DNA of 37,690 nucleotides from positions 1 through 37,690 of the forward strand of contig JAJBBL010000052.1 in the NCBI GenBank assembly GCA_020532365.1. The letters are read 5' to 3'. Numbering within the stretch: position 1 is the stretch's first letter; each line of letters opens with the position of its first letter. Positions 409 to 25,687 of this stretch are shown here, piece after piece. The DNA comes from Candidatus Cloacimonadota bacterium (GTDB lineage: Bacteria > Cloacimonadota > Cloacimonadia > Cloacimonadales > JAJBBL01). The notes beneath the pieces were generated by a model that saw only the letters and a list, made by a program, of their open reading frames with translations, was not told where the DNA came from and searched no databases. The position numbers and the translations under genes were made by a program.

Positions 409-867
409 ATGGATAAAGAAAAGATTAAAGAGTTGATTGACATAGCAATTGAGAGAGAAGAAGAGTCTTACGAGTTTTACTCAAACGTTGCGACTGTTCT
501 GGAAAATCCATCATTGAAGCAATTATTCACTGAACTGGCTAATGAGGAGATAGGACACAAGAATTTCTTACTCAATATTTTAGAAAAACCAGATGCTCAC
601 GTTGTTATTAACGCTCCAAAGATTGACTATAAGTTGGCTGAGCAGGTAGAGCTACCGAAGCTTTCAATGAGTATGAAGCCAGCAGAAGCTATTGCTTTGG
701 CGATGAAGAAAGAGTTGCAAGCTGCGGAATTTTATCAAGAATTAGCAGCCAATATGTCTGATGAGAACTTAAAAGCATCTGCTATTAGTCTTGCCAATAT
801 GGAGTTAGCTCATAAAACCAAACTTGAGAAGGCATACGTAGACATAGCCTATATAGAAGCATTTTAA
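409..867 (+). CDS. Stand-alone ferritin-like diiron protein (rubrerythrin family, no rubredoxin domain)
   Basis: The 152-aa ORF has a GGAGG ribosome-binding site upstream. It shows the four-helix diiron ligand pattern E...ExxH...E...ExxH (EREEESYEFY, NEEIGH, KKELQAAEFY, NMELAH). Confidence 0.8.
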   Translation: MDKEKIKELIDIAIEREEESYEFYSNVATVLENPSLKQLFTELANEEIGHKNFLLNILEKPDAHVVINAPKIDYKLAEQVELPKLSMSMKPAEAIALAMKKELQAAEFYQELAANMSDENLKASAISLANMELAHKTKLEKAYVDIAYIEAF

Positions 868-879
868 TAAATTAGCTGT

Positions 880-974
880 CGAGAGGATGGGACTGGTGTC
901 TCAGCTGGTCTGCAAAATCAGTAGCGGGCGGATAAAACCGTCTGTGGCAGGTTCGATTCCTGCCCTCTCAGCCA
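880..974 (+). tRNA. Atypical 95-nt class-II / tRNA-Sec-like tRNA with anticodon GCA (Cys codons UGC/UGU)
   Basis: Hand fold. Acceptor 880-886 CGAGAGG pairs with 964-970 CCTCTCA (6 Watson-Crick pairs plus a C1/A72 mismatch). G971 is the discriminator and CCA is encoded at 972-974. D arm: (T)GGGAC 888-893, loop TGGT, GTCTC(A) 898-903. Anticodon stem GCTGGT 904-909 pairs with ATCAGT 917-922; the loop is CTGCAAA 910-916 with GCA at 912-914. Variable arm is 923-946 (stem CGGGCGG/CCGTCTG, loop ATAAAA). T arm: GCAGG, loop TTCGATT, CCTGC (947-963). Confidence 0.8.
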
Positions 975-1488: not shown

Positions 1489-2559
1489 ATGGACAAAGAT
1501 TTAAAGAAGTTTTTTACTGATCTGGTAGATGCGCCAAGTCCGTCAGGGTATGAACAGCCTGCACAAGATGTATACCGTGCGTTTGTTAAGCCTTACGCTG
1601 ATGAAGTTAAGACTGATGTACACGGCAACGTAATTGCCCTCCGCAAAGGTAAAGGGAAGCTTAGAATGATGATCTCTGGGCACGTTGACGAGATCGGCTT
1701 TATGGTTAACTATATTGATAATGACGGATTTTTATACGTCAAACCAGTAGGTGGAATTGATCCCGGTTTGTTACCAGGCTTGAGAGTTAACGTCTACGGA
1801 CATAAAGGGGTGGTCAGAGGTGTCTTTGGTAAAAAGGCTATCCATATGATGGCTCCGGATGAGCGAGAAAGGGTAGCAAAGCTTCACGACTTATGGATCG
1901 ATATCGGCGCCCCTAACAAAAAAGAGGCTGAAAAAAGAGTCGCTATCGGTAATGTAGTAACCTTCTCACCAGGGATGGAAAAGCTCTATAAAGACGTAGT
2001 TATGACCAAAGCGACCGATAATAAGGTTGGAGTGTTTGTTGCGGGTACTGTTCTAAAACACCTGGCGAATGAAGATATTCAAGCTAACCTTTATTCTGTA
2101 TCATCCGTCCAGGAAGAGATCGGAATCAGAGGTGCGAGAACGAGTGCTTACGGAATAGACCCACACGTTGCTATAGCTATTGACGTTACATTCACCTCGG
2201 ATCATCCAGGTACAGACAAAAAACGTTACGGTGATATAGCCATCGGTAAGGGACCTGTAGTGGCAGTTGGACCTAACATCAACCCGAAAGTATTTGAGCT
2301 GGTCAAAGAGGCTGCAACGAATACTAAAATTGAATACCAAATTCAGGTAGAGTCGGGAGCTACAGGGACTGACGCTAATGTTATACAGGTAAATAAGAGT
2401 GGTGTCGCAACTGGTCTGGTTTCAATTCCGAACAGGTATATGCATTCACCGAATGAGGTTATTTCGCTTAAAGATCTCGACGATACGGCATTGCTTATCG
2501 CTGAGTTTGTTAGACTTATCGACGATAATACCGACTTCATACCGAAAGGTAAGATCTGA
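1489..2559 (+). CDS. M42 family metallopeptidase (FrvX/YpdE/endoglucanase-like aminopeptidase)
   Basis: 356 aa with SGHVDEIGF, ATDNKVG and VQEEIGIRGA metal-ligand motifs and a typical N-terminal PSPSGYE. AAGAGGT ribosome-binding site upstream. Confidence 0.85.
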   Translation: MDKDLKKFFTDLVDAPSPSGYEQPAQDVYRAFVKPYADEVKTDVHGNVIALRKGKGKLRMMISGHVDEIGFMVNYIDNDGFLYVKPVGGIDPGLLPGLRVNVYGHKGVVRGVFGKKAIHMMAPDERERVAKLHDLWIDIGAPNKKEAEKRVAIGNVVTFSPGMEKLYKDVVMTKATDNKVGVFVAGTVLKHLANEDIQANLYSVSSVQEEIGIRGARTSAYGIDPHVAIAIDVTFTSDHPGTDKKRYGDIAIGKGPVVAVGPNINPKVFELVKEAATNTKIEYQIQVESGATGTDANVIQVNKSGVATGLVSIPNRYMHSPNEVISLKDLDDTALLIAEFVRLIDDNTDFIPKGKI

Positions 2560-2565
2560 TAGCAC

Positions 2566-3339
2566 TTGATGATACAAGTCGAAAAACTAACAAAGACTTT
2601 CAAAAATAAAAAAGGGGAAGCGTTTAAGGCGGTAGATAACTTTTCGTTTACTGCTAAGAAAGGTGAAATAGTATCACTGTTAGGGGTGAACGGAGCTGGC
2701 AAAACAACTATGCTCCGGATGCTATCAACAATCCTAAAGCCTGACAGTGGCGACGCTTACCTCAATGGATATAGTATCAGAAGAGAACCCGGTAAGGTTA
2801 GAAGCGTTATCGGGTTTCTTTCTGGTGATACAGGACTATACGGGAGACTTACACCTCGCGAAATATTAACCTATTTTGGAAGACTCTACGACGTTCCCGA
2901 CCCAGTTATAAAAGAACGTATCGCTGAAATGGCGGAACTGTTAGATATGAACGAATTTTTGGATAGAAAAGTGGACGTGCTCTCTACCGGGATGAAACAA
3001 AAAGTGTCGATCAGTAGATCTATTATTCACGACCCACCCATTATGATTTTTGACGAACCTACCTCAGGTTTAGACATCCTTACCGCTCGGACTATCGTCT
3101 CCTTTATAAATAAATGCAAAGAGGATGGAAAGTGTATCCTCTTTTCGACACACGTGATGAGAGAGACTGAACGTATCGCCGATAAAGTTGAAATGATTCA
3201 TAAAGGGGCTGCTGTGGCAAGTGGGTCTTTGGAGGAGTTACGTTTAGATACTGGTTTCACCGACCTAGACGACATTTTTGTCCATTACGTTAACAAAGAA
3301 AATATCCTGAACGAAGAGATTAGAGAGAATGAGTTTTAG
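2566..3339 (+). CDS. ABC transporter ATP-binding protein (NatA/ABC-2 type)
   Basis: Walker A GVNGAGKTT, signature LSTGMKQKV, Walker B IMIFDEPTSGLD. The start is TTG 2566 or the adjacent ATG 2569. Confidence 0.9.
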   Translation: MMIQVEKLTKTFKNKKGEAFKAVDNFSFTAKKGEIVSLLGVNGAGKTTMLRMLSTILKPDSGDAYLNGYSIRREPGKVRSVIGFLSGDTGLYGRLTPREILTYFGRLYDVPDPVIKERIAEMAELLDMNEFLDRKVDVLSTGMKQKVSISRSIIHDPPIMIFDEPTSGLDILTARTIVSFINKCKEDGKCILFSTHVMRETERIADKVEMIHKGAAVASGSLEELRLDTGFTDLDDIFVHYVNKENILNEEIRENEF

Positions 3340-5356
3340 TAAAGTCCTGGTCGTTTTTCGTAAAGAGATGCTCGATCTGTTACGAGATAAAAGAACGATA
3401 TTCTCTTCGATAGTTTTACCAATTATTCTTTATCCCATCTTGATGATCGGGTTTAACTCCTTGATGTCCCGCCAGACTATTAAATTAGAAGAGCAAGAGG
3501 TTATCGTTTATGTCCTCGATAATGTTGAGAATGAAAACTCTTACTTTTTCTTAGAGAACCTCAGAGAGACTAAAGGGATCCAGATTTATCAACAGACTGA
3601 AGCTTACCAGATGCTCTTCGACGAAAAGATCCTGCAGGCTATCATAACGCTCGATGAAGAGCCTTTAGATAATGAATATGAGCAGCTTAAGGTAACTATT
3701 ACCTATAGCGCTGTGGATGAAAAAAGTGAGCTTGCCTATAATCAAACTACTAAGTTTATTCGTGGACTTAGAGAGCAATTGGTGGGGAAGAGGCTGCAAG
3801 CTATTAATATCTCGGAAAATGTCCTGAAGGTAATCGAGGTGGTCGATGATGATATTGCCACTGGCGAACAGACCTTAGGGCTGATCCTTTCAAAAATATT
3901 ACCCTATTTCTTGATTATTATATCTATTAGTGGTGCCGCTACCGCTGCAGTTGACCTCGTTGCTGGAGAGAAAGAACGTAAGACGTTGGAGACTATACTC
4001 GTCAGCGCTGCTAAAAGGAATGAGCTTGTCTTTGGTAAGTTTCTGTCGGTCATAACGATTTCAATTGTCACCGTAGTGTTAAACCTGCTCAGTATCTTCT
4101 TCTCGTTCAGACATATTATGTCGCAAGCGGCACTTGATACCGTTCCGATTAGTATACCCATCGGCAATATTCTGTTGATTATGAGTATAATGCTACCGAT
4201 GATTATCCTGTTTGGCTCGGTGATTTTCTCACTTTCGACCTATTCGAGGAATATGAAAGAGTGCTATAGTTATACCCAGCCGATAATGATAGTGGCTATG
4301 CTACTCTCTCTGATTGCGGCGTTACCCGCTTTTGAGACTACTTTTGGGCTCACCCTGATACCTGTTATTAACGTCTCATTGCTAACGAAAGATATTATGC
4401 TCGGTGACCTCAATATTTACCATTATTTAGCGACGCTACTGTCGACTTGTATCCTGGTGGCTATTGCGATTTTCATATCTATCAGACTGTTCAATAAAGA
4501 AGGTGTGCTTTTTAGAACCGTTGAAGAAGGATCAATAGTCAAAGATAAAAAGGGTAGATTCAACCCGCTTAACCCCTCTTTTGCGTTCTTGTTCTTCCTG
4601 TTTATTGTCCTGCTCTTCTACTATTTAGCAATAAGCTGGCAGACCGAAAACTTGGAAGTTGGATTAATCAAAACCCTTCTACTCCTTGTCTTGCTACCTA
4701 CTATACTCGTTATTAAATTCGGCAAACTTAGCTTGAAAGAGACTTTGAGCATAAGATGGACTAATCCGCTTAACTATCTGCTCGTGTTACTGATTTCAGT
4801 ACCCTTTTTCGTGATAGTAACCCATATAGCTCAACTAATTAACTTTATATACCCCTTCCCTGAGAGCTATTTAGAAATGTTCCAAAATATGGTACTGTTT
4901 GAAGGGAAAGGGGCGTGGTACACCTTCTTTATAGTAGCCTTACTGCCCGGTATAGCTGAGGAAGTAATGTTTAGAGGCTACTTTATTCAAGCTTTCAAGA
5001 GCAAGAATATCTGGATTAGTATCGTTGTCAGTGCGGTACTGTTTTCCCTACTACACCTCGATATCTTTAGGTTTATACCGGTAGCTCTGCTCGGTATTTG
5101 GCTCGGCTACTTGTTAGTCAAAACAAAGAGTATTTTTGCCCCTATGTTAGCCCATATAGCTCACAACGGGTTAGCACTTGTCGTCAGTAATATTGGGGAT
5201 AAAATACCCTTCTTTGAGCTAATGGTCAAAGATGACAATCTGGCCTGGTGGACTATTTTACCAGCTTTAGCGCTTGCCTATGTGTTAGTAATTCTCTTTA
5301 ATAAACTGAATAAAGGTAGTGAAGAGTTCGCCACGGAAAGAGTTGTTGAGAGATGA
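3329..5356 (+). CDS. Fusion protein: ABC-2 (NatB-like) permease followed by a CPBP/CAAX-type intramembrane glutamic protease
   Basis: It overlaps the ATPase gene by 11 nt. The N-terminal roughly 400 aa is a multi-TM ABC-2 permease with a large first loop. The C-terminal part has CPBP motifs GIAEEVMFRGY, LFSLLHL and AHIAHNG. Confidence 0.8.
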   Translation: MSFSKVLVVFRKEMLDLLRDKRTIFSSIVLPIILYPILMIGFNSLMSRQTIKLEEQEVIVYVLDNVENENSYFFLENLRETKGIQIYQQTEAYQMLFDEKILQAIITLDEEPLDNEYEQLKVTITYSAVDEKSELAYNQTTKFIRGLREQLVGKRLQAINISENVLKVIEVVDDDIATGEQTLGLILSKILPYFLIIISISGAATAAVDLVAGEKERKTLETILVSAAKRNELVFGKFLSVITISIVTVVLNLLSIFFSFRHIMSQAALDTVPISIPIGNILLIMSIMLPMIILFGSVIFSLSTYSRNMKECYSYTQPIMIVAMLLSLIAALPAFETTFGLTLIPVINVSLLTKDIMLGDLNIYHYLATLLSTCILVAIAIFISIRLFNKEGVLFRTVEEGSIVKDKKGRFNPLNPSFAFLFFLFIVLLFYYLAISWQTENLEVGLIKTLLLLVLLPTILVIKFGKLSLKETLSIRWTNPLNYLLVLLISVPFFVIVTHIAQLINFIYPFPESYLEMFQNMVLFEGKGAWYTFFIVALLPGIAEEVMFRGYFIQAFKSKNIWISIVVSAVLFSLLHLDIFRFIPVALLGIWLGYLLVKTKSIFAPMLAHIAHNGLALVVSNIGDKIPFFELMVKDDNLAWWTILPALALAYVLVILFNKLNKGSEEFATERVVER

Positions 5357-6138: not shown

Positions 6139-7494
6139 ATGAGTCTGTTAGAGAATAAGGGAAATGATTTCGCTTCATACAAAAGCGATGAGGTCAATCT
6201 TAAAGATAGACTGGTAAAACAGCTACCTTCAAAAGATGTTGAAATGCTTGTTAATGCCGGTAAATTAGCCCAAAATATGGGGGTTAAATGCTACCTCGTC
6301 GGAGGGACTGTGAGAGACTTAGTGCTTAAGAAAAGATGCTATGACATCGATCTTACAGTTGATGGGGATGGATTGGCATTTGCTGAACAATTTACAAAGT
6401 TCTATGGCAAAAGAATGAAATCGTTTGCTCAGTTTGGGACTGCATTTGTAGTGCTTAAAACAGGTAAGAAAATCGATATCTCAACATCGAGAACTGAAGT
6501 TTATACCTCGCCAGGAAGCTTGCCAAAAGTTAAATACGGAGAGATAGAGTATGACTTGTATCGACGTGATTTTACCATAAATAGTATGGCTATTAGCGTT
6601 AACCCTGAAGATTTTGGCCGTCTGCTCGACTTTCATTCAGGAGTCAAAGATCTGAAAGCCAAAGTTATAAGAATACTTAACGACCAGAGCTTTGAAGACG
6701 ATCCCCTTAGAGTGCTTAGAGCCATTAGATTTGAGCAAAGATTAGGTTTCGACATAGAGAATAGAACAAAAGAACTGATGATGAAGAGCATAGAGTCTAA
6801 CTGCCTTAAAACTGTCTCGGCTGAAAGAGTTTATACAGAACTAATCGTCTCGACTAATAAAGGGGATGCTGCTAAATTTATTACCAGGTTGAGTGAGTTA
6901 GGTATACTGAGACAAATACATAAGTCTCTCTATTTCGACGAGTTAAAAGCAGAGCAGGCTAAAGAGCTAAGTAAGCTCCTTGAATGGTTTGTTAAAGAGT
7001 ATCCTCAAGACAAAATAGAGAAATGGTATCCTTTCCACTTAATCCTGTTTTCCGGACTCCCTAAAGACATGCAGACCTCCATTGCGAAACAGTTGACTTA
7101 CCCCAGTAACTTTATCAAAAGTATCAGTAAAATTAAGCTGTTTCTTGATAAAATAGATAGTGGCGAACTGAAAGATAGTACAGATGGAGAGTTAGCCCTT
7201 AAGTTATCTGGTCTACGGATAGAGGATGTCTTATACCTGTTAGCCGTCGTCAAAGACGATGAGCTAAAAAGTAGATTACGACACTATTTGACTCACTCCC
7301 GATCAGTCTCTCTTAGTATCAACGGTCACGATCTATTAATGATGGGTGTTACGCTTGGTGCGCTTATAGGGAGTATATTGCAAACATTGAAGATACAGAA
7401 GATAGATGGCAAGATTTCCAATAGGGAAGATGAGCTTGAACTTGCCAAAAAGATGGTAGATGACGACTCAGATTCAGCTACTAACTTAGAATAA
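6139..7494 (+). CDS. tRNA nucleotidyltransferase / poly(A) polymerase family protein (CCA-adding type)
   Basis: PolyA_pol head motif LVGGTVRDLVL..YDIDL, RRDFTINSMA, and DPLRVLRAIRF. It starts 4 nt after the recO stop. Confidence 0.8.
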   Translation: MSLLENKGNDFASYKSDEVNLKDRLVKQLPSKDVEMLVNAGKLAQNMGVKCYLVGGTVRDLVLKKRCYDIDLTVDGDGLAFAEQFTKFYGKRMKSFAQFGTAFVVLKTGKKIDISTSRTEVYTSPGSLPKVKYGEIEYDLYRRDFTINSMAISVNPEDFGRLLDFHSGVKDLKAKVIRILNDQSFEDDPLRVLRAIRFEQRLGFDIENRTKELMMKSIESNCLKTVSAERVYTELIVSTNKGDAAKFITRLSELGILRQIHKSLYFDELKAEQAKELSKLLEWFVKEYPQDKIEKWYPFHLILFSGLPKDMQTSIAKQLTYPSNFIKSISKIKLFLDKIDSGELKDSTDGELALKLSGLRIEDVLYLLAVVKDDELKSRLRHYLTHSRSVSLSINGHDLLMMGVTLGALIGSILQTLKIQKIDGKISNREDELELAKKMVDDDSDSATNLE

Positions 7495-11440: not shown

Positions 11441-11537
11441 TTTTCTAAGTAATAGTGATGAAAAGACTTGTTTTTTGAAGGTTTTGAACCTATATTTAAG
11501 TTTATAGTGTATAAATTAACGAAATAAAGAGGTGATT

Positions 11538-12035
11538 ATGAAAAAGGAACAATTATTAGAAGCTATAAAAAAGGCGATGAGAGCAGAACTTGATAGTGTT
11601 AACCTTTATCAATCAGCGTTAAACGCTTCGGATGACCAAGAGGTAAAAGACTTCTTTCAAGAGCGTGTCGACGAGGAAAAGAGACATTACAATTATCTTT
11701 TGAACTATTACAAGGAAATTGAAAGTGATAAGAAACTGACCGACCTTGGTGATATTTTTAGTGAACCGGAAGCTGAGACTATTTTTAGCGAAGGCTTCTT
11801 GAGGAGAATAGGGGAGAAGCAAGTCCTTTTCTCAGCTATATCGACTGCAGTGCTCTTAGAAAAAGAGGCGTTACAACACTACAAAAACCTTGCTCAAGAT
11901 ACAGATGAGCAAGAGTTAAAAGATTTCTTCTCACATATGGGTAGCTGGGAGACTCAGCACTATATGGACGTTCTTAAAATCCAACAAGAGGCTGAAAAGT
12001 TCTACTGGGAAATCAATGACTTTGAGCCATTCTAA
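11538..12035 (+). CDS. Stand-alone ferritin-like diiron protein (rubrerythrin family), paralog of 409-867
   Basis: Same E...ExxH...E...ExxH pattern (RAELDSVNLY, DEEKRH, LEKEALQHY, SWETQH). I prefer ATG 11538 (AAAGAGGTG 4 nt upstream) over the track's GTG at 11532. Confidence 0.8.
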   Translation: MKKEQLLEAIKKAMRAELDSVNLYQSALNASDDQEVKDFFQERVDEEKRHYNYLLNYYKEIESDKKLTDLGDIFSEPEAETIFSEGFLRRIGEKQVLFSAISTAVLLEKEALQHYKNLAQDTDEQELKDFFSHMGSWETQHYMDVLKIQQEAEKFYWEINDFEPF

Positions 12036-17222: not shown

Positions 17223-18137
17223 CTAATCTTCTTTTTTCTTATTCCTGGGGTGTGCTTGCTGATATGTTTTAATGAGGTCGCTATTTGAGATATGAGTATA
17301 GACCTCTGTTGTAGAGGGGTTATTGTGTCCCATCATTTGTTGGATAGCTCTCAAATCAGCCCCTCTGGAAAGGAGGTGGGTGGCAAAAGAGTGTCTTATT
17401 GCGTGAGGCGAATATCCATTTGTTCGAGCTATCAAATTGATGTACCTTCTCAAAATCACCCTTATTTCTGAAGGCTCTAAAGGTTGCCCACTCTTAGAGA
17501 GGAAAACAGAGTCGTCACTCAGCTCCGTGAGGAACTGATGTCTAATATCGAGGTAGTGGTGCAGTGATTCCAAAGCGTATTTACCTATGGGTATGACTCT
17601 TGTTTTATTTCCTTTACCGTGCACTCTAATGTATTTAGCGGTCATAGAAATGTCTTTCATATGACATCCTGCGACTTCAGAGATACGTAGTCCGGAGGAA
17701 TACATCAGTTCTAAAATAGCTCTATTTCTTACTCCAAACTTGGAGCTGAGGTCTGGTATTTTAAGGAGCTGGCTCATCTCTTTTTCCGTAAAGTATTTCG
17801 GTAATTTTTTCTCAACTTTGGGAAGGGCGAGATTATAGAGCGGATTTTTCTCAATGTATCCACGTTTCAGGGCGTACTTAAAGAAGTTTCTAAAGACCGT
17901 AGTTTTACGTGACAGAGTTCTATTTGTTCTTTTATTGAGGCTAAGTTCTTGAAGGTAGTCCCTGATCATCAGCTTGTTTACACCATTAAGGTTCACTTCT
18001 CCGTCGGGAAAGTATTTTGAAATGTATTCAAAGAGAAGTTCTAAGTCGCTGATATATGCTCTGATGGTATGTTGTGATGCTTGAGAGGCAACTAATTGTG
18101 CTTTATATTCTTGAATAATAGTGTTTAGCATCATCAA
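17223..18137 (-). CDS. Tyrosine recombinase, XerC/XerD family
   Basis: N-terminal SAM-like core-binding domain (TIRAYISDLELLFEY). Catalytic residues in SGLRISEV, HAIRHSFATHL and GHNNPSTTEVYTH. Confidence 0.85.
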   Translation of the reverse strand: MMMLNTIIQEYKAQLVASQASQHTIRAYISDLELLFEYISKYFPDGEVNLNGVNKLMIRDYLQELSLNKRTNRTLSRKTTVFRNFFKYALKRGYIEKNPLYNLALPKVEKKLPKYFTEKEMSQLLKIPDLSSKFGVRNRAILELMYSSGLRISEVAGCHMKDISMTAKYIRVHGKGNKTRVIPIGKYALESLHHYLDIRHQFLTELSDDSVFLSKSGQPLEPSEIRVILRRYINLIARTNGYSPHAIRHSFATHLLSRGADLRAIQQMMGHNNPSTTEVYTHISNSDLIKTYQQAHPRNKKKED

Positions 18138-19958: not shown

Positions 19959-22900
19959 CTAAACCTCAGTCTGGTCGACTTTTCTTTTCTCTTCAGCCTG
20001 ATGAAGGTAATGCCAGACGTATTCAGTGGCGATGTTTACCTCGTCGCTAAGCTCATTCGAAGAGAGGGGAAGCTTAATCTTTTCACTGTCCAACACTTTA
20101 GAGGGCATGGCTTTTAGAAAGAACTTCTCTGTCTTTGCTAACCAAACAGAAGGTTCTGTCTTTTCTATAGTTATCAGCCCTGATTCGTAGAGTATTTGTA
20201 GCAGTGTGGGGAAGATGGGTGACTTTTCTGGATTATAATAGTGGTTTAATCTATTATCGTCAGATAAAGATGTTCCCTCCATTTTCAGGTAGCTCGGCTT
20301 CGGTAGAATTAGGTCAGCCGGGTAGTCATCTGTGTAGTGTGTATCTATAGCGACGGTGTAGTTACCCTTTTCCACATCTAACTTTTGGATAAGTCTTTCA
20401 CCACAGTTAAGCACAAAGGTGTTTTCGAGTGGGAGTTCTGGATTAAACTCTATGTCTAAGAGTCTAAGGGCGTTGATGTTTGACCAGTCTGAAGTCTCCA
20501 ATACCCCTGAGCCTTGTCCAAAATCGCAAACACTTAAGGCTAAGCTCCAGATGTCATAAATCTCTTTCTCACTAATCTTATTTCGGTTGTAGATAAACAC
20601 CGTTTTCTGTGGAAGAGTAAAGGGAGCGTTAGTCAGATTAGAGATTTGAGCAGAAATAGCTGTATCATCGCCACTGAGTGCAAACTGTTTCATCTCTTGC
20701 AAGACACTGCTAAGATTATCTGTTTTAAAAAGATGGTTAGCAAACTTATTAAACTTCTTGTCGTTTTTGTTGATTAGAGTCATCTTTTTACCTTTAAGCT
20801 GCTGTGAACGACAGAGTACTCTAATTGTTTGACTTGTCTCACCTACAATAACGATATGCTCGGCGTCTTTGATTGATTTAAAAGAGAGATTGTTGGCATA
20901 TTCAGACAAAAAGTCGTCGGTAAATATTTTTTCACAGGTGGTAGTGGACAGTTTAACGTCCAATCTTTCAGCTATTTCTTTCATAAGCAATAGCTCTTCA
21001 TTGGTGTTGTGAGGTGATACGGTAACGACTTTATTTTTAGCTTTATCCAACTTATCCTTTAGAATGGAAGCAGCTCTACGCCAATCAATTTTAGCCCATC
21101 CATATTCAGTTTTAAGCATAGGCTCGTTAACACGGTAGTCGTGATGAAGCACTTCCCAACCAAACTTTCCATAGAAACAGATGTTTTTAAGATTAAAGTC
21201 TAACGTCTCAGGGTGTGTTATATAGGCAATATTGCCTAAAGATAAGCGGATTGATATCTTGCAACCGGTGCCACAGAACCCACAATTTTGGTCGACAACT
21301 GTATCTTCGAGAGGATACATCTTAATGACAGTGTTATTTTCAGTCAAAGCACCCGTAGGGCATACAGTTACACATTTACCGCACGATTCACAAGCTGTTT
21401 TCGTTAAGCTTTCACCAAATTCAGGCTTCACAACGGTCACAAAACCACGGTTAATATATCCCAAGACTCCGGGTCCTTGTATCTCCGAACAGGTTCTTAC
21501 ACAGAGCCCACAGTCTATACACTTGTTGGCGTCCCTAAGGATAAAGGGGTGTGAAATATCTTCAAAGTATTGGTTTTTAGTTCCAAAGAAGAGGGTATCA
21601 CCAACATCGTAGTCGGTAGCGTAGTCACGCAATGAACAGCGGTAATTCACCATACAGCCGCACTCTAAACAGCGTTCCGCTTCCTTTATCGCCTCATCTT
21701 CTGAAAAACCTATTTCGACCTCTTCAAAGTTATCTATCCTCATCTCAGCATCAAGCTCAGGCATTTGTACCCTATCCTCTTTTCTGAAGGTGGAGTACCA
21801 GAATTTTTCAGTCTCTTTCAGACTCTTAGCTTTACGGGATTGGAAAGGCTTTTTCGGTCTTAATTTATCATTAATACAGCCGTTCTGAAGGAAAACAGCA
21901 ATATTTTCAGCAGCTCTTCTACCGTCTGCAATTGCCTCTATGGCAGTTGAAGGACCGAGGCGGAAATCACCACCAGCAAATACGTTTTTCAGGCCTGTGA
22001 AGAGAAGCTCCTCGTCAACTTCAACTGTCGACCAGCGTGAGATAGGTATATTTTTTCCATCAATCCGATTGCTTGGGTCTGAAAATAGTTCGACTTCTGG
22101 TACTTGTGAAATAGCAGCGATAACTGTATCAAACAGTTCAATCTCATATTCACCGGTTGGCTCTGGCCTCTGTCTACCACTTGAGTCTGGAGCGCCAAGC
22201 CTCATTTTCTCGATCCTAACAGATCTTATACCCTTCTCATCTCCGATGTACTCTACAGGGCTGGATAGTATGTGTAATTTTATTCCTTCCTCTTCAGCGG
22301 CGACAATTTCGTAAGGTTCAGCGGGCATTTCTTTCCTGGTACGTCTGTAGATAATAGTCACCTCAGCACCGAGTCTCCTTGCAGTTCTGGCACAGTCTAT
22401 AGCAGTGTTACCACCACCTATCACGGCAACTTTCTTACCAGTTTTAATCTCTTTCCCAAGCATTATATCTTTCAGATAGTCAACGCCAAGGTATGAGCCT
22501 GGTAAGTCGGAGCCTTTGACGTGCATTGGTACTGCTTTTTGAGCACCTATAGCAAGATATACCGCATCATATTTATTCGATAGCTCTGGTAGAGTAAAAT
22601 CTTTCCCTAAAATCTTCTCAGTCTCGATTACCATCCCGTTAGAACACATCAGCTCTATCTCTCTTTCGAGAATTTCCTTTGGCAACCTGTACTCTGGGAT
22701 ACCGTAATATAGCCAGCCGCCTGGCTTTGGAGACGCTTCAAAAACAGTGACTTCATAACCCTTTTGAGAGAGATAGTATCCGCAAGTTAAACCTGAAGGG
22801 CCTGCACCGACAATAGCGATGTGTTTCCCTTTTAGGTCATCTTGAGGGTGTACATAAGACCAGTAGTCGTTCAGATCAGAGTCGGCAGCGTATCTTTTAA

Positions 22901-23399
22901 GCTGTCTTATAGCAATAGGCTCGTCGACTATTGTACGACGACATTCTTTTTCACAAAAAGCGGGGCATACCCTTCCTATTGAGAGTGGCATAGGCAGTGT
23001 ATCTTTAATGACTTTGACCGCTTCGTGTTGCTGATTATTGGCAATGAGGGCTACATATGACTGTACATCCACTTGACCCGGACAGGCCAATTTACAAGGT
23101 GCTTCACAGTCGGCATAGTGGTCAGAGAGCAGTAGTTCTAAAGCCATCCTTCTTGCATTATGTATCTCTTCGGAGTCGGTTGTTATAACCATATTAGGTT
23201 CGATAGTGGTGCCACAAGAGGTTACAAAACCTTTTTTCCCTTCGACTTTTACTGAGCAGACCCAGCAAGAACCGTAAGGCTTCAACTCTTCATCGTGGCA
23301 GAGGGTAGGTATTTTAATTCCATACTCTTTAGCAACTTCAAGGATAGTCATCCCTTTACGTGCTTCTATTTCTTTACCGTTAAGTGTAATCTTTATCAT
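19959..23399 (-). CDS. Large multidomain Fe-S flavoprotein: NuoG-type 2Fe-2S, GltD/NfnB/SfrB-like NAD(P)H-FAD module, 4Fe-4S clusters and a truncated molybdopterin-oxidoreductase-like domain
   Basis: CHDEELKPYGSCWVCSV (2Fe-2S); CKLACPG...CPAFCEKEC (GltD Fe-S); IAIVGAGPSGL and VAVIGGGNTAIDCA (two Rossmann folds). Then HPFILRDANKCIDCGLCVRTC, CESCGKCVTVCPTGAL and NCGFCGTGC (Mop 4Fe-4S). The start is moved to ATG 23399 (AAAGAGG upstream), which removes the 23-nt overlap with the upstream gene. Confidence 0.8.
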   Translation of the reverse strand: MIKITLNGKEIEARKGMTILEVAKEYGIKIPTLCHDEELKPYGSCWVCSVKVEGKKGFVTSCGTTIEPNMVITTDSEEIHNARRMALELLLSDHYADCEAPCKLACPGQVDVQSYVALIANNQQHEAVKVIKDTLPMPLSIGRVCPAFCEKECRRTIVDEPIAIRQLKRYAADSDLNDYWSYVHPQDDLKGKHIAIVGAGPSGLTCGYYLSQKGYEVTVFEASPKPGGWLYYGIPEYRLPKEILEREIELMCSNGMVIETEKILGKDFTLPELSNKYDAVYLAIGAQKAVPMHVKGSDLPGSYLGVDYLKDIMLGKEIKTGKKVAVIGGGNTAIDCARTARRLGAEVTIIYRRTRKEMPAEPYEIVAAEEEGIKLHILSSPVEYIGDEKGIRSVRIEKMRLGAPDSSGRQRPEPTGEYEIELFDTVIAAISQVPEVELFSDPSNRIDGKNIPISRWSTVEVDEELLFTGLKNVFAGGDFRLGPSTAIEAIADGRRAAENIAVFLQNGCINDKLRPKKPFQSRKAKSLKETEKFWYSTFRKEDRVQMPELDAEMRIDNFEEVEIGFSEDEAIKEAERCLECGCMVNYRCSLRDYATDYDVGDTLFFGTKNQYFEDISHPFILRDANKCIDCGLCVRTCSEIQGPGVLGYINRGFVTVVKPEFGESLTKTACESCGKCVTVCPTGALTENNTVIKMYPLEDTVVDQNCGFCGTGCKISIRLSLGNIAYITHPETLDFNLKNICFYGKFGWEVLHHDYRVNEPMLKTEYGWAKIDWRRAASILKDKLDKAKNKVVTVSPHNTNEELLLMKEIAERLDVKLSTTTCEKIFTDDFLSEYANNLSFKSIKDAEHIVIVGETSQTIRVLCRSQQLKGKKMTLINKNDKKFNKFANHLFKTDNLSSVLQEMKQFALSGDDTAISAQISNLTNAPFTLPQKTVFIYNRNKISEKEIYDIWSLALSVCDFGQGSGVLETSDWSNINALRLLDIEFNPELPLENTFVLNCGERLIQKLDVEKGNYTVAIDTHYTDDYPADLILPKPSYLKMEGTSLSDDNRLNHYYNPEKSPIFPTLLQILYESGLITIEKTEPSVWLAKTEKFFLKAMPSKVLDSEKIKLPLSSNELSDEVNIATEYVWHYLHQAEEKRKVDQTEV

Positions 23400-23412
23400 T
23401 ATTTTGCCTCTT

Positions 23413-25185
23413 TTACTGTTTAGTGATTGCCGCAAACTTACAGGACTCGTAACAGATTCCGCACTTGATACACATATCTTGATTTATAATGTGTACTTCA
23501 CGCGCTTTGCCGTCAATTGCGTTAGTGGGGCATTTTCTGGCGCAAACTGTGCAACCGATACATTTATCGGGTAAAATATTGTATTCAACCAGGTTGGTGC
23601 AGACACCGGCAGGACACCTTTGGTCGAGAATATGTGTAAGATACTCATCCTTAAAATAACGTAGAGTAGTCAGCACTGGGTTTGGTGCAGATTGACCTAA
23701 GCCACATAGCGACCCTTTCTTTATATTGTTAGAAAGGCTCTCTAAAAGGTCAATATCGCTCATTTTACCTTTGCCTTCACATATTTTGGTCAGTATTTCC
23801 AGCATCCTTTTAGTGCCTACTCTACAGAAGGTGCATTTGCCGCACGATTCATTTTGAGTAAAGTTAAGGAAAAACTTGGCCACATCAACTATACAAGTGG
23901 TTTCATCCATTACAACTAATCCACCAGACCCCATTATAGCCCCTTTGTCGACAAGAGAATCATAGTCAACCGGTGTGTCGAGTAAAGACTCGGGCAAACA
24001 GCCCCCTGAAGGGCCACCTAATTGCACAGCTTTGAGAGGGCTGTCAGTTTTCATTCCACCGCCAACTTCGTAAATCACTTCACGGAGTGTAGTACCCATT
24101 GGAACCTCTATTAGCCCACTATTTTTGATTTTGCCAGCTAAAGCAAACACCTTTGTTCCTTTGCTCTCTTCAGTGCCATACTTAGCAAACTCTTCACTGC
24201 CGTTAAGGATAATCCAAGCTACATTGGCAAGCGTTTCAACATTATTGATATTTGTCGGGTTGCCCCAGAGTCCGGACTCTGATGGATATGGTGGTCTAAC
24301 GTTTGGCATCCCTCTTTTACCTTCAATTGAGGCCATCAGAGCAGTCTCTTCACCGCATACAAATGCGCCTGCGCCTTCCTTTATATGGAGGGTGAAACTG
24401 AAAGGGGTATTCAGTATGTTTTTGCCTATAAATCCAGCTTTCTCAGCTTTATCAATAGCAATTTTAAGGTGCTCTATAGCAAGTGGGTATTCAGCCCTTA
24501 CGTAGATATACCCTTCATCGGCACCAATCGCATAAGCTGCTATAAGCATCCCTTCAATAACGCTGTGAGGGTCAGCCTCCAACACGCTTCTGTCCATAAA
24601 AGCACCCGGATCACCTTCATCGGCGTTACAGACTACAAATTTTTTATCCCCTTTGGCTATATGAGCAAACTCCCATTTCTTACCAGTAGAGAATCCAGCA
24701 CCGCCACGCCCCCTAAGCCCAGACGCTTTCATTTCTTCTATAACCTGTATTGGCTTCATTTTAAGAAGTGTTTTCTCAAGTGCTTTATAACCATTTCTGT
24801 TCAGATAGTCGTCTAAAGAGGTAGGTTCTATAATACCGACATTTCTGAGGACGATTCTCTTCTGTTTTGAGTAGTTTTGGTTCTCGATACCGGTCTTAGC
24901 AGAATTCAGTATTACGTTTTTGGTTATAGGGCTGTTATCTAAGTAAGCCTCTATGATTCCATTGACCTCTTCCGGCGTAACGTTGCCATACAGGGTGTAC
25001 AGCCCTTTCTCGTCGAGTATTTCTACCAAAGGTTCGACAGAGCAATACCCAAAGCAACCAACCTCTTTCAGTTCGGCTTTGCCGCTCTTAACTGCATCAG
25101 ATTCCTTCAATGCTTCCAGTACTTGATTAGCCCCAGCTGCTAACCCGCAGCTTCCTAATCCGACTTTAACTGTTAATCTTGCCAA
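23413..25185 (-). CDS. NuoF/HydB-like NADH-binding FMN Fe-S subunit, with N-terminal thioredoxin-like 2Fe-2S and C-terminal 2x[4Fe-4S] domains
   Basis: GLRGRGGAGFSTGKKWEF (FMN/NADH site), ESCGKCTFCRVG (N3 cluster), CIGCTVCARKCP...CIKCGICYESC. TTG start with AAGGAG upstream. Confidence 0.9.
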   Translation of the reverse strand: MARLTVKVGLGSCGLAAGANQVLEALKESDAVKSGKAELKEVGCFGYCSVEPLVEILDEKGLYTLYGNVTPEEVNGIIEAYLDNSPITKNVILNSAKTGIENQNYSKQKRIVLRNVGIIEPTSLDDYLNRNGYKALEKTLLKMKPIQVIEEMKASGLRGRGGAGFSTGKKWEFAHIAKGDKKFVVCNADEGDPGAFMDRSVLEADPHSVIEGMLIAAYAIGADEGYIYVRAEYPLAIEHLKIAIDKAEKAGFIGKNILNTPFSFTLHIKEGAGAFVCGEETALMASIEGKRGMPNVRPPYPSESGLWGNPTNINNVETLANVAWIILNGSEEFAKYGTEESKGTKVFALAGKIKNSGLIEVPMGTTLREVIYEVGGGMKTDSPLKAVQLGGPSGGCLPESLLDTPVDYDSLVDKGAIMGSGGLVVMDETTCIVDVAKFFLNFTQNESCGKCTFCRVGTKRMLEILTKICEGKGKMSDIDLLESLSNNIKKGSLCGLGQSAPNPVLTTLRYFKDEYLTHILDQRCPAGVCTNLVEYNILPDKCIGCTVCARKCPTNAIDGKAREVHIINQDMCIKCGICYESCKFAAITKQ

Positions 25186-25231
25186 AATGTTCTCCTTTGT
25201 CCAAACTTGGCTTTAAAAATTATTTATATGC

Positions 25232-25687
25232 TTAATAGCTCGCCAATATCTCTGAAATCTTCTGTGGATCGAGCTTACCGTATGTCGTATTGTCTATCAT
25301 AATAACAGGCGCAAGACTGCAGCAGCCGAGACAGGCTACTTCAAATAGAGTGAATTTATTATCGGCAGTAGTGTCTTCACCCTCTTCTAAATCGAGTTCG
25401 TTCCTAAGAGTTGTCAAGATCAAGTCTGCATTTGAGACGTGACAAGCTGTTCCTTTACAAATTCTGATAGTGTGTTTTCCTTGTGGCTTTAGACGGAAAA
25501 CAGTGTAAAAGGTGGCTACACCAAAGATATCGGCTACTCCGATACCTGAAATATCTGAAACCATTTTCATAGTCTCTTTTGAGAGGTATCCCTCAAGCTC
25601 CTGAATCTCCTGCAACATAGGTATAAGTGACCCATTAACGAACTCATACTTAAAGATAATTCGTTCAAGTTGTTTTCTTAAATCCAT
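25232..25687 (-). CDS. NuoE/HydC-like thioredoxin-fold 2Fe-2S subunit
   Basis: 151 aa with CKGTACHV...ACLGCCSLAP cluster ligands. Confidence 0.9.
   Translation of the reverse strand: MDLRKQLERIIFKYEFVNGSLIPMLQEIQELEGYLSKETMKMVSDISGIGVADIFGVATFYTVFRLKPQGKHTIRICKGTACHVSNADLILTTLRNELDLEEGEDTTADNKFTLFEVACLGCCSLAPVIMIDNTTYGKLDPQKISEILASY

Follow-up and report, generated by a model that had tools for sequence, protein, structure and literature searches.

A selenocysteine-type tRNA gene with a cysteine anticodon in Cloacimonadota and its probable use at UGC and UGU codons of formate dehydrogenase

The window analysed here is a 37,690-nt (37.7-kb) stretch of contig JAJBBL010000052.1 from Candidatus Cloacimonadota bacterium, with a G+C content of ~40%. 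At positions 880-974 of its plus strand lies a 95-nt transfer RNA (tRNA) gene that folds like a selenocysteine tRNA (tRNA-Sec) and carries the cysteine anticodon GCA, the discriminator G73 and an encoded CCA end. It was the single tRNA that ARAGORN reported in the window, as tRNA-Cys(GCA) at 881-970. With Rfam, the sole family above its gathering score was tRNA-Sec (RF01852; 53.8 bits against a cut-off of 47, E = 2.8e-8), and the general tRNA model, which belongs to the same clan, scored lower. The unconstrained minimum-free-energy fold was a tRNA-Sec-type cloverleaf with z = -3.4 and an energy of -40.8 kcal/mol; none of 200 shuffled sequences folded equally well. The covariance model and ARAGORN thus agreed with the first-pass annotation, which had described a selenocysteine-shaped tRNA with a GCA anticodon.

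Divided by structural element, the gene reads CGAGAGG-A-TGGGAC-TGGT-GTCTCA-GCTGGT-CTGCAAA-ATCAGT-A-GCGGGCGG-ATAAAA-CCGTCTGT-G-GCAGG-TTCGATT-CCTGC-CCTCTCA-G-CCA. The 5′ strand of the acceptor stem occupies 880-886; its positions 881-886 pair with 964-969, as supported by the fold and by covariation, and C880 stands opposite A970 as a mismatch. One linker base, A887, which is invariant in the ortholog alignment, separates the acceptor stem from the D arm (888-903). The D arm consists of a 5-6-bp stem (888/889-893 with 898-902/903) and the 4-nt loop TGGT; the stem is GGGAC/GTCTC with T888-A903 as a possible sixth pair, and compensatory changes were seen at three pairs. In the anticodon arm (904-922), a 6-bp stem (904-909/917-922) closes the loop C-U-GCA-A-A, which places the anticodon at 912-914; this arm is supported by ARAGORN, the fold and three compensatory pairs. 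The variable region (923-946, 24 nt, from the fold and the alignment) comprises A923, an 8-bp stem (924-931/938-945) that includes three G-U pairs, a 6-nt loop and G946. The T arm (947-963, GCAGG-TTCGATT-CCTGC) has a 5-bp stem that is invariant in all orthologs, and it is followed by the 3′ strand of the acceptor stem (964-970), the discriminator G971 and the encoded CCA (972-974); the G-C-C-A end is identical in all 14 sequences of the alignment. In tRNA numbering, the acceptor/T helix is 7/5, C1 and A72 are mismatched, and a single base forms the linker.

The length of 95 nt, the T arm, the D arm, the 6-bp anticodon stem, the loop CTGCAAA, the C880/A970 mismatch and the G971-CCA end had all been noted before and were found again when the sequence was re-read. 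The variable arm was described correctly as 24 nt long, but its stem is 8 bp and not 7 bp. An alternative 8-bp acceptor stem (8/5, with T879·G971), which had been mentioned as a second way to read the gene, was rejected because no aligned ortholog departs from G73-CCA, whereas a pair between base -1 and G73 is possible in just 7 of the 14. G912, the first anticodon position, is genuine and not an assembly error, because the identical 95 nt recur in independent ENA and JGI contigs (L001 and L003; such handles designate the loci compared here) and because G34 is also present in 14 other lineages. Assemblies often stop at this tRNA gene, and of four contigs with the window's cupin gene, two end within the tRNA or shortly past it (L002, 1-92; L004, 1-84).

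Orthologs were collected by scanning one genome per GTDB species with the pattern TGGT-N12-YTGCAAA, followed by a long gap and then the T loop. The result was two clear groups. Group A contained 13 records labelled Cloacimonadota, each with a 95-nt ortholog free of insertions and deletions and with an invariant G-CCA end. Group B came from Nitrospirota, Thermodesulfovibrionales, several Bacillota and Deltaproteobacteria; its members end in U-CCA, form a sequence cluster separate from the G73 family and match the published selC* tRNA-Cys class. The alignment of the Cloacimonadota family (A1) held 14 sequences, and a fifteenth lineage, L159, was found later; the 95-nt GCA ortholog is present in 15 Cloacimonadota lineages, the window and 14 others. 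Orthologs were also scored by Rfam as tRNA-Sec, for example L076 (58.3 bits) and L015 (52.8 bits). In A1, 98.6% of the cells were paired, and seven pairs in the acceptor, D and anticodon stems were changed on both sides, compared with 0-2 when the pairing partners were slid. The loop TGGT was invariant; the outer D pair 888:903 forms in 12 of 14 sequences and is unpaired in the other two, with the remaining five D pairs conserved. Acceptor pair 3:70 varies between AU, GU and CG. In the variable arm 97% of the cells were paired, with one-sided changes only. G73 was invariant in 14 of 14 sequences and was also found in L159. All 14 sequences of A1 have C·A, A·G or A·A at position 1:72, but L159 has A-U there, which weakens the case for the mismatch as a feature common to all GCA forms. 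The mean column identity of the tRNA was 92% while the flanking proteins had diverged to ~50-78% identity, and this indicates strong selection on the tRNA.

The U73 tRNAs of Group B bear on the possibility that the window tRNA is simply an odd-shaped tRNA-Cys charged by cysteinyl-tRNA synthetase (CysRS), either as a general tRNA-Cys or as a selC*-like tRNA (tRNA-ReC) that SelB delivers to selenocysteine (Sec) sites. ARAGORN labels the gene tRNA-Cys, GCA is a strong CysRS identity element, and tRNA-Sec-like tRNA-Cys species are a known class, of which the scan recovered many in Nitrospirota, Bacillota and Deltaproteobacteria. Two of the scanned U73 tRNAs even lie directly after an fdhA gene with UGC, both in metagenome-assembled genomes of Deltaproteobacteria (L035, fdhA 83-2359 and tRNA 2415-2479; L062, fdhA 4412-1911 and tRNA 1872-1808, both on the minus strand). 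However, every member of the selC* class has U73, the major CysRS determinant, against G73 in all 14 sequences of A1 and in L159. The helix of the window family is a plain 7/5 and not a bulged 8/4, neither cysS* nor a second selB lies nearby, and Cys carried by SelB to UGC or UGU (UGY) codons would add nothing beyond an ordinary tRNA-Cys. Because G73 stands in place of the universal U73, charging by CysRS appears unlikely, and we consider the tRNA-Cys explanation as a whole to be improbable. Membership in the selC* class itself was ruled out by the U73 of that class and the invariant G73 found here. A canonical bacterial tRNA-Cys (class I, ~74 nt, U73) was ruled out as well, given the 95-nt length, the 24-nt variable region and G73.

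In the relatives the GCA tRNA occupies the selC position, because selA, in some lineages with selB, directly follows it. In L095 and L039 the order is tRNA(GCA), selA, selB; in L015 and L117 selA lies directly downstream of the tRNA, and in L007 it is found one gene beyond. Contigs that encode FdhA were also fetched without any condition on a tRNA, and this gave L158 and L159. L158, from the same chromosome as L015, reads nuoE...nuoF-fdhA-tRNA(GCA)-selA, and L159 reads fdhA-rbr-tRNA(GCA)-selA-selB, with selD, TusA and a Se/S-carrier gene alongside. The tRNA is thus directly upstream of selA in five lineages (L095, L039, L015/L158, L117 and L159), with selB after selA in L095, L039 and L159. 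The SelB proteins keep the SelB-wing_3 domain, the winged-helix domain that binds the selenocysteine insertion sequence (SECIS). SelA is widespread in the phylum, with Cloacimonadota names as all organism labels among the 120 best matches, and the SelA proteins of the GCA lineages are merely 46-69% identical to one another. Together with the Rfam assignment, the position upstream of selA bears out the earlier suggestion that the gene is a selC relative with a G34 anticodon.

The window itself is tied to these loci by its gene content. It shares gene order and 57-78% protein identity with the Group A locus L076, and the tRNA sits between a cupin gene and a rubrerythrin-like gene (409-867, plus strand, Pfam) that is its conserved upstream neighbour; we report the latter as context and claim no functional link. 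The rbr-tRNA adjacency was found in the window, L076, L031, L115, L007, L112, L064 and L044, and in addition in L159, where the same pair lies within the Sec gene cluster.

Formate dehydrogenase was the point at which codon and tRNA could be compared. In the fdhA genes next to the GCA tRNA, the selenocysteine position within the motif CARL-C-HSSTVAGL is encoded by a normal Cys codon. In the three lineages with fdhA near the tRNA this codon is UGC (L007, L159) or UGU (L158), and four further Cloacimonadota fdhA genes (L161-L164) likewise have UGC or UGU at the Sec site. All seven UGY-type genes have a hairpin directly after the codon, with the loop GGUCU and with G23/U24 spaced as in the SECIS of Escherichia coli fdhF, a reference sequence that we verified by its 100% identity within fdhF in >5,400 genomes. 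Two other Cloacimonadota fdhA genes have a true in-frame UGA followed by the same hairpin; a SelA with the label Cloacimonas sp. SDB led to L167, and L168 comes from a Tenebribacter davisii contig. The Sec site and hairpin lie at 309-368 in L167, 9986-10045 in L168, 2768-2827 in L007, 11045-11104 in L158 and 11054-11113 in L159. Over the nine fdhA hairpins, the 7-bp apical stem was 93.7% paired, and three pairs were changed on both sides, all by synonymous substitutions (for example GUGGCC/GGCUGC against GUUGCA/UGCAG). In 309 kb of Cloacimonadota DNA, a scan for UGY followed by a hairpin of this kind matched six fdhA sites and, weakly and in antisense, two others, and the corresponding scan with UGA returned L167 and L168 only. 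L160, a related fdhA with no sel gene in its vicinity, reads GGC-UUG and lacks the hairpin.

In L028, a frame-shifted N-terminal fdhA remnant of ~100 residues (6721-7013) lies between nuoF and the GCA tRNA (7350-7444), and this lineage has retained the tRNA after loss of the adjoining fdhA. This remnant, and the absence of a sel gene beside the tRNA in the window's own lineage, would fit a tRNA that inserts serine at Cys codons through the elongation factor EF-Tu, as is possible for allo-tRNAs, or a non-translational or regulatory RNA, with the UGY fdhA genes being Cys forms that have a leftover SECIS. [quoted passage not shown] Against such a role, serine in place of cysteine throughout the proteome would harm the many Fe-S proteins encoded in the window, and the usually unpaired 1:72 position would, by the precedent of initiator tRNA, weaken binding to EF-Tu. 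The tRNA is moreover conserved across the phylum in the selC position by selA, with selB downstream in three lineages, its T stem and D arm are tRNA-Sec-like, and synonymous changes that compensate one another maintain the SECIS after UGY. We therefore hold a missense or regulatory function to be very improbable.

The reading that we prefer, with a probability of roughly 60%, is that the window tRNA is the selC of Cloacimonadota, of the 7/5 one-linker 'Cloacimonetes type', with the anticodon GCA in place of UCA, and that it inserts Sec at a UGY codon followed by a SECIS in FdhA. As the first-pass annotation had stated, the window alone cannot decide between Sec at UGC/UGU, serine at Cys codons and tRNA-dependent Cys synthesis; the UGY codons with a SECIS in fdhA and the linkage to selA, both outside the window, favour the first option, and for the last no support was found. 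For the window's own organism, the sel genes of which lie outside the window, the same function would follow from its relatives.

Charging, conversion to Sec and delivery of this tRNA would proceed by the bacterial Sec pathway, in which serylation by seryl-tRNA synthetase (SerRS) is followed by conversion by SelA and delivery by SelB (summarised in PMC7609411). SerRS would recognise the long variable arm together with G73, an identity set that, judged by the alignment, the window tRNA family possesses. SelA, which recognises a long D stem with a 4-nt loop, would then turn Ser into Sec with selenophosphate from SelD; the window tRNA has the 6-bp D stem and the 4-nt loop. SelB with its SECIS-binding winged-helix domain would bring the Sec-tRNA to the UGC or UGU directly before the hairpin, at the active-site codon of FdhA, an NAD-linked formate dehydrogenase, where it would compete with Cys-tRNA·EF-Tu. 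All remaining Cys codons would be read by ordinary Cys-tRNA through EF-Tu. The weak or absent 1:72 pair may help to hold a tRNA of canonical 12-bp length away from EF-Tu. Under selenium shortage the same codon would yield a Cys form of FdhA and not a truncated protein, and the arrangement would thus act as a fail-safe. FdhA is the sole target identified.

UGA-type and UGY-type genes coexist in the phylum. The 129 closest FdhA homologs comprise 94 that are interrupted at the Sec site (UGA type) and 35 of full length (UGY type). Both types are intermingled, and a crude neighbour-joining tree of the 129 proteins requires at least 11 state changes. The Cloacimonadota fdhA orthologs with UGA, UGC or UGU all carry the same SECIS hairpin. 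With the preferred selC(GCA) reading, co-variation of anticodon and codon is expected. An alternative is that a GCA tRNA-Sec is the sole tRNA-Sec of most Cloacimonadota and reads both UGA, through a G34·A mismatch, and UGY with the help of SelB and the SECIS, so that the FdhA codon drifts freely. Eleven matched switches of anticodon and codon are many, the SECIS is the same in UGA- and UGY-type genes, a UCA tRNA was found in none of the loci labelled Cloacimonadota, and a tRNA-Sec-like GCA tRNA has been reported to recode UGA with SelB and a SECIS (Vargas-Rodriguez 2018, as summarised in PMC13582414 and PMC11415595). On the other hand, three of three fdhA genes that adjoin the GCA tRNA use UGY, no tRNA of the UGA-type lineages turned up within 7-10 kb of the selA or fdhA genes inspected, the tree is crude, and Sec-to-Cys codon changes are frequent in selenoprotein families without a change in the tRNA. 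A member of the same tRNA family with the anticodon UCA also exists (L146). Free drift under such a sole dual-reading tRNA is in our view unlikely. The related proposal that one GCA tRNA-Sec serves UGA, UGC and UGU in much of the phylum, with UGY as cognate codons and UGA as a near-cognate codon under SelB, we regard as tentative and rather doubtful; were it to hold, a sense codon would have a dual meaning set by its context in large parts of the phylum, Cys via EF-Tu in general and Sec via SelB where a SECIS follows, and the mostly unpaired 1:72 position would help to keep the 12-bp tRNA off EF-Tu.

L146 is a metagenomic contig with the tRNA at 782-877. The tRNA has the anticodon UCA and is 82/95 identical to the window tRNA, as is the GCA ortholog L159. 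ARAGORN and Rfam (64.9 bits) both call it tRNA-Sec, and it heads a selC-selA-selB operon, the SelA of which is as near to the Cloacimonadota SelAs as those are to one another. It has an A1-U72 pair and C33, whereas in the GCA members 1:72 is mostly unpaired and position 33 is U. The metagenome scan for family members without G34, which yielded L146, covered only loops of the form N-C-U-H-N-N-A, and in viral contigs, scanned for the family with any anticodon, no match was found. The anticodon loop CCUCAAA, with C33 in place of the near-universal U, was observed in several unrelated groups of metagenomic tRNA-Sec(UCA): L146, L147-L150, L155, L125, L133, L135, L136, L138, L141, L143, L153 and L156. 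Those tested with ARAGORN and Rfam (L146, L148 and L133) were still called tRNA-Sec.

Several observations weigh against the proposed selC(GCA) and its use at UGY codons. Thirteen of the 15 GCA examples were picked by a pattern that demanded GCA. No sel gene was found in the 37.7-kb window, and a scan of it for a SECIS-like hairpin after a UGY or UGA codon gave none. The majority of the closest FdhA homologs are of the UGA type, and in the search for the tRNA of UGA-type lineages, which covered three selA neighbourhoods (L165-L167) and one fdhA neighbourhood (L168), no Sec-like tRNA was found within 7-10 kb. Random synonymous recoding yields an equally long apical stem in 4-17% of the trials per gene, and the case for a SECIS after UGY therefore rests on the combined lines of evidence and not on any single gene. 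One fdhA gene has a different hairpin loop size, and the hairpin-free control was a single fdhA gene (L160). Selenoprotein families had been suggested for comparison, and of these FdhA has UGC or UGU at the Sec site with a SECIS hairpin, but the SelD of L159 has UGC at its Cys/Sec site without a hairpin (z = +0.9), and SelD was rejected as a second UGY target. Replacement of Sec by Cys is frequent in selenoprotein families, and a SECIS may linger for some time afterwards. Finally, a separate canonical tRNA-Cys, which would be needed for the remaining Cys codons, is assumed in these genomes.

Among the other genes of the window are those for an M42 peptidase, ABC transporters, RecO, the CCA-adding enzyme, CTP synthase, UvrB and a NuoE/F-like cluster. 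In this cluster (19959-25687, minus strand) a NuoE-like gene and a NuoF-like gene lie together with a gene for a 1158-residue fusion protein that has 2Fe-2S, GltD-type flavoprotein, 4Fe-4S and partial molybdopterin domains. At the place of the FdhA active-site motif CAR-L-C/U-H the fusion protein has ...LSTTTCEKIF..., and it appears to be a degenerate relative of the FdhA proteins with a GltD fusion that the FdhA search returned from Aeromonas, Vibrio and Photobacterium. A second rubrerythrin/ferritin-like paralog is encoded at 11532-12035 (plus strand); the first rubrerythrin lies upstream of the tRNA in at least nine lineages, and in L167 it is present without a tRNA after it. In L097, a tyrosine recombinase gene (2507-3508) starts 8 nt past the GCA tRNA, and its product is 50% identical to the XerC/D-like integrase of the window (17223-18137, minus strand). 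This may be a coincidence, or the tRNA may be an integration site.

Insertion of Sec at UGC/UGU by anticodon variants of tRNA-Sec and the 7/5 one-linker tRNA-Sec of Cloacimonetes are both already published. What may be new is the breadth, with the GCA form in 15 lineages with SelA proteins 46-69% identical, and the occurrence side by side, within one phylum, of UGA- and UGY-type fdhA that share their SECIS. None of the papers searched links Cloacimonas to selenoproteins. To our knowledge, only in a few strains have experiments shown that a sense codon is naturally recoded to selenocysteine. If the proposed function is correct, a phylum that is abundant in anaerobic digesters and sediments has kept such recoding over long evolution. 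In annotation pipelines the tRNA is called tRNA-Cys and the enzyme a cysteine formate dehydrogenase, and UGY selenoproteins are therefore invisible to searches that consider only UGA. How far formate and CO2 metabolism in these communities depends on selenium would then be underestimated. The Cloacimonadota fdhA genes, with UGA or UGY before the same SECIS, form a natural series on the joint change of anticodon and codon, and the compact 7/5 body, which is presumably accepted by SerRS, SelA and SelB, is of interest for engineered selenoprotein expression.

The features of E. coli selC that the first-pass annotation had given (95 nt, loop CTTCAAA, T arm GCAGGTTCGACTCCTGT) were checked and are correct. 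The window tRNA resembles E. coli selC in its length of 95 nt, a nearly identical T arm and anticodon stem, the 6-bp D stem with 4-nt loop, the long variable arm and the G73-CCA end. It differs in having a 7/5 helix instead of 8/5, one linker base instead of two, GCA instead of UCA and a variable region of 24 nt instead of 21 nt. The two marks of a canonical bacterial tRNA-Sec, a 13-bp (8/5) helix and the anticodon UCA, are thus both absent from it. The annotation had also mentioned reports of tRNA-Sec variants with GCA, of tRNA-Sec-like tRNA-Cys and of allo-tRNAs, all of which exist in the literature (PMC5389517, PMC11415595). Allo-tRNAs are found by the same tRNA-Sec covariance model and have a long variable arm, a D arm resembling that of tRNA-Sec, either G73 or U73, and a range of anticodons that includes sense anticodons. 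They have an 8/4 or 9/3 helix and no linkage to sel genes, whereas the window family has a 7/5 helix and is linked to selA, and to selB in three lineages. Identity as an allo-tRNA was ruled out, since 8/4 or 9/3 is required and the window family is 7/5 with an invariant 5-bp T stem.

The selC* tRNA-Cys (tRNA-ReC) is a CysRS substrate with U73 that inserts Cys at UGA through SelB (PMC5389517). It shares with the window tRNA the tRNA-Sec-like shape, the GCA anticodon, the occurrence in anaerobes, often by fdhA or sel genes, and a match to the Rfam tRNA-Sec family (L084, L016). A GCA or UCA anticodon on a tRNA-Sec-like body, by which selC* tRNAs are recognised, is also found in the window tRNA. 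Apart from U73, the delta-proteobacterial members differ by an 8/4 helix with a bulge, and sometimes have their own selB* or cysS*; the window tRNA has G73 and a 7/5 helix, and no selB* or cysS* paralogs are nearby.

Natural anticodon variants of tRNA-Sec that insert Sec at UGC/UGU are documented (PMC8124441, PMC11415595, PMC10778597). A close parallel in function is Aeromonas salmonicida, in which a tRNA-Sec(GCA) was shown experimentally to read a Cys codon in formate dehydrogenase as Sec (Mukai 2016, as cited in PMC11415595, PMC10778597 and PMC8124441). As in Cloacimonadota, a tRNA-Sec has a Cys anticodon and the target is a formate dehydrogenase with UGY and a SECIS, and the Aeromonas-type FdhA is ~56% identical to that of Cloacimonadota. 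The Aeromonas system belongs to another phylum and to a few strains, whereas the Cloacimonadota GCA form is conserved across deep lineages (SelA 46-69% identical). Sec insertion in Aeromonas was shown by experiment, and in Cloacimonadota it is proposed from sequence.

Exceptions with a 7/5 helix are documented among tRNA-Sec (PMC5330540), and a close parallel in structure is found there. The paper (Santesmasses 2017, citing Mukai 2016; PMC5330540) describes a 'Cloacimonetes type tRNASec' with a 12-bp (7+5) helix and one linker nucleotide fewer. The first-pass annotation had presented the 7+5 helix with C1/A72 as a departure from selC; the helix is as it described, but it is no oddity, since it matches this type. 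The comparison goes by the description in PMC5330540; the UCA member L146 differs from most GCA members in having A1-U72, and from the GCA members in having C33. The window tRNA shares with the Cloacimonetes type the phylum, the 7+5 helix and the missing base between the acceptor and D stems, and it also has G73, the long variable arm and the 6-bp D stem with a 4-nt loop, with its relatives in the selC position by selA.

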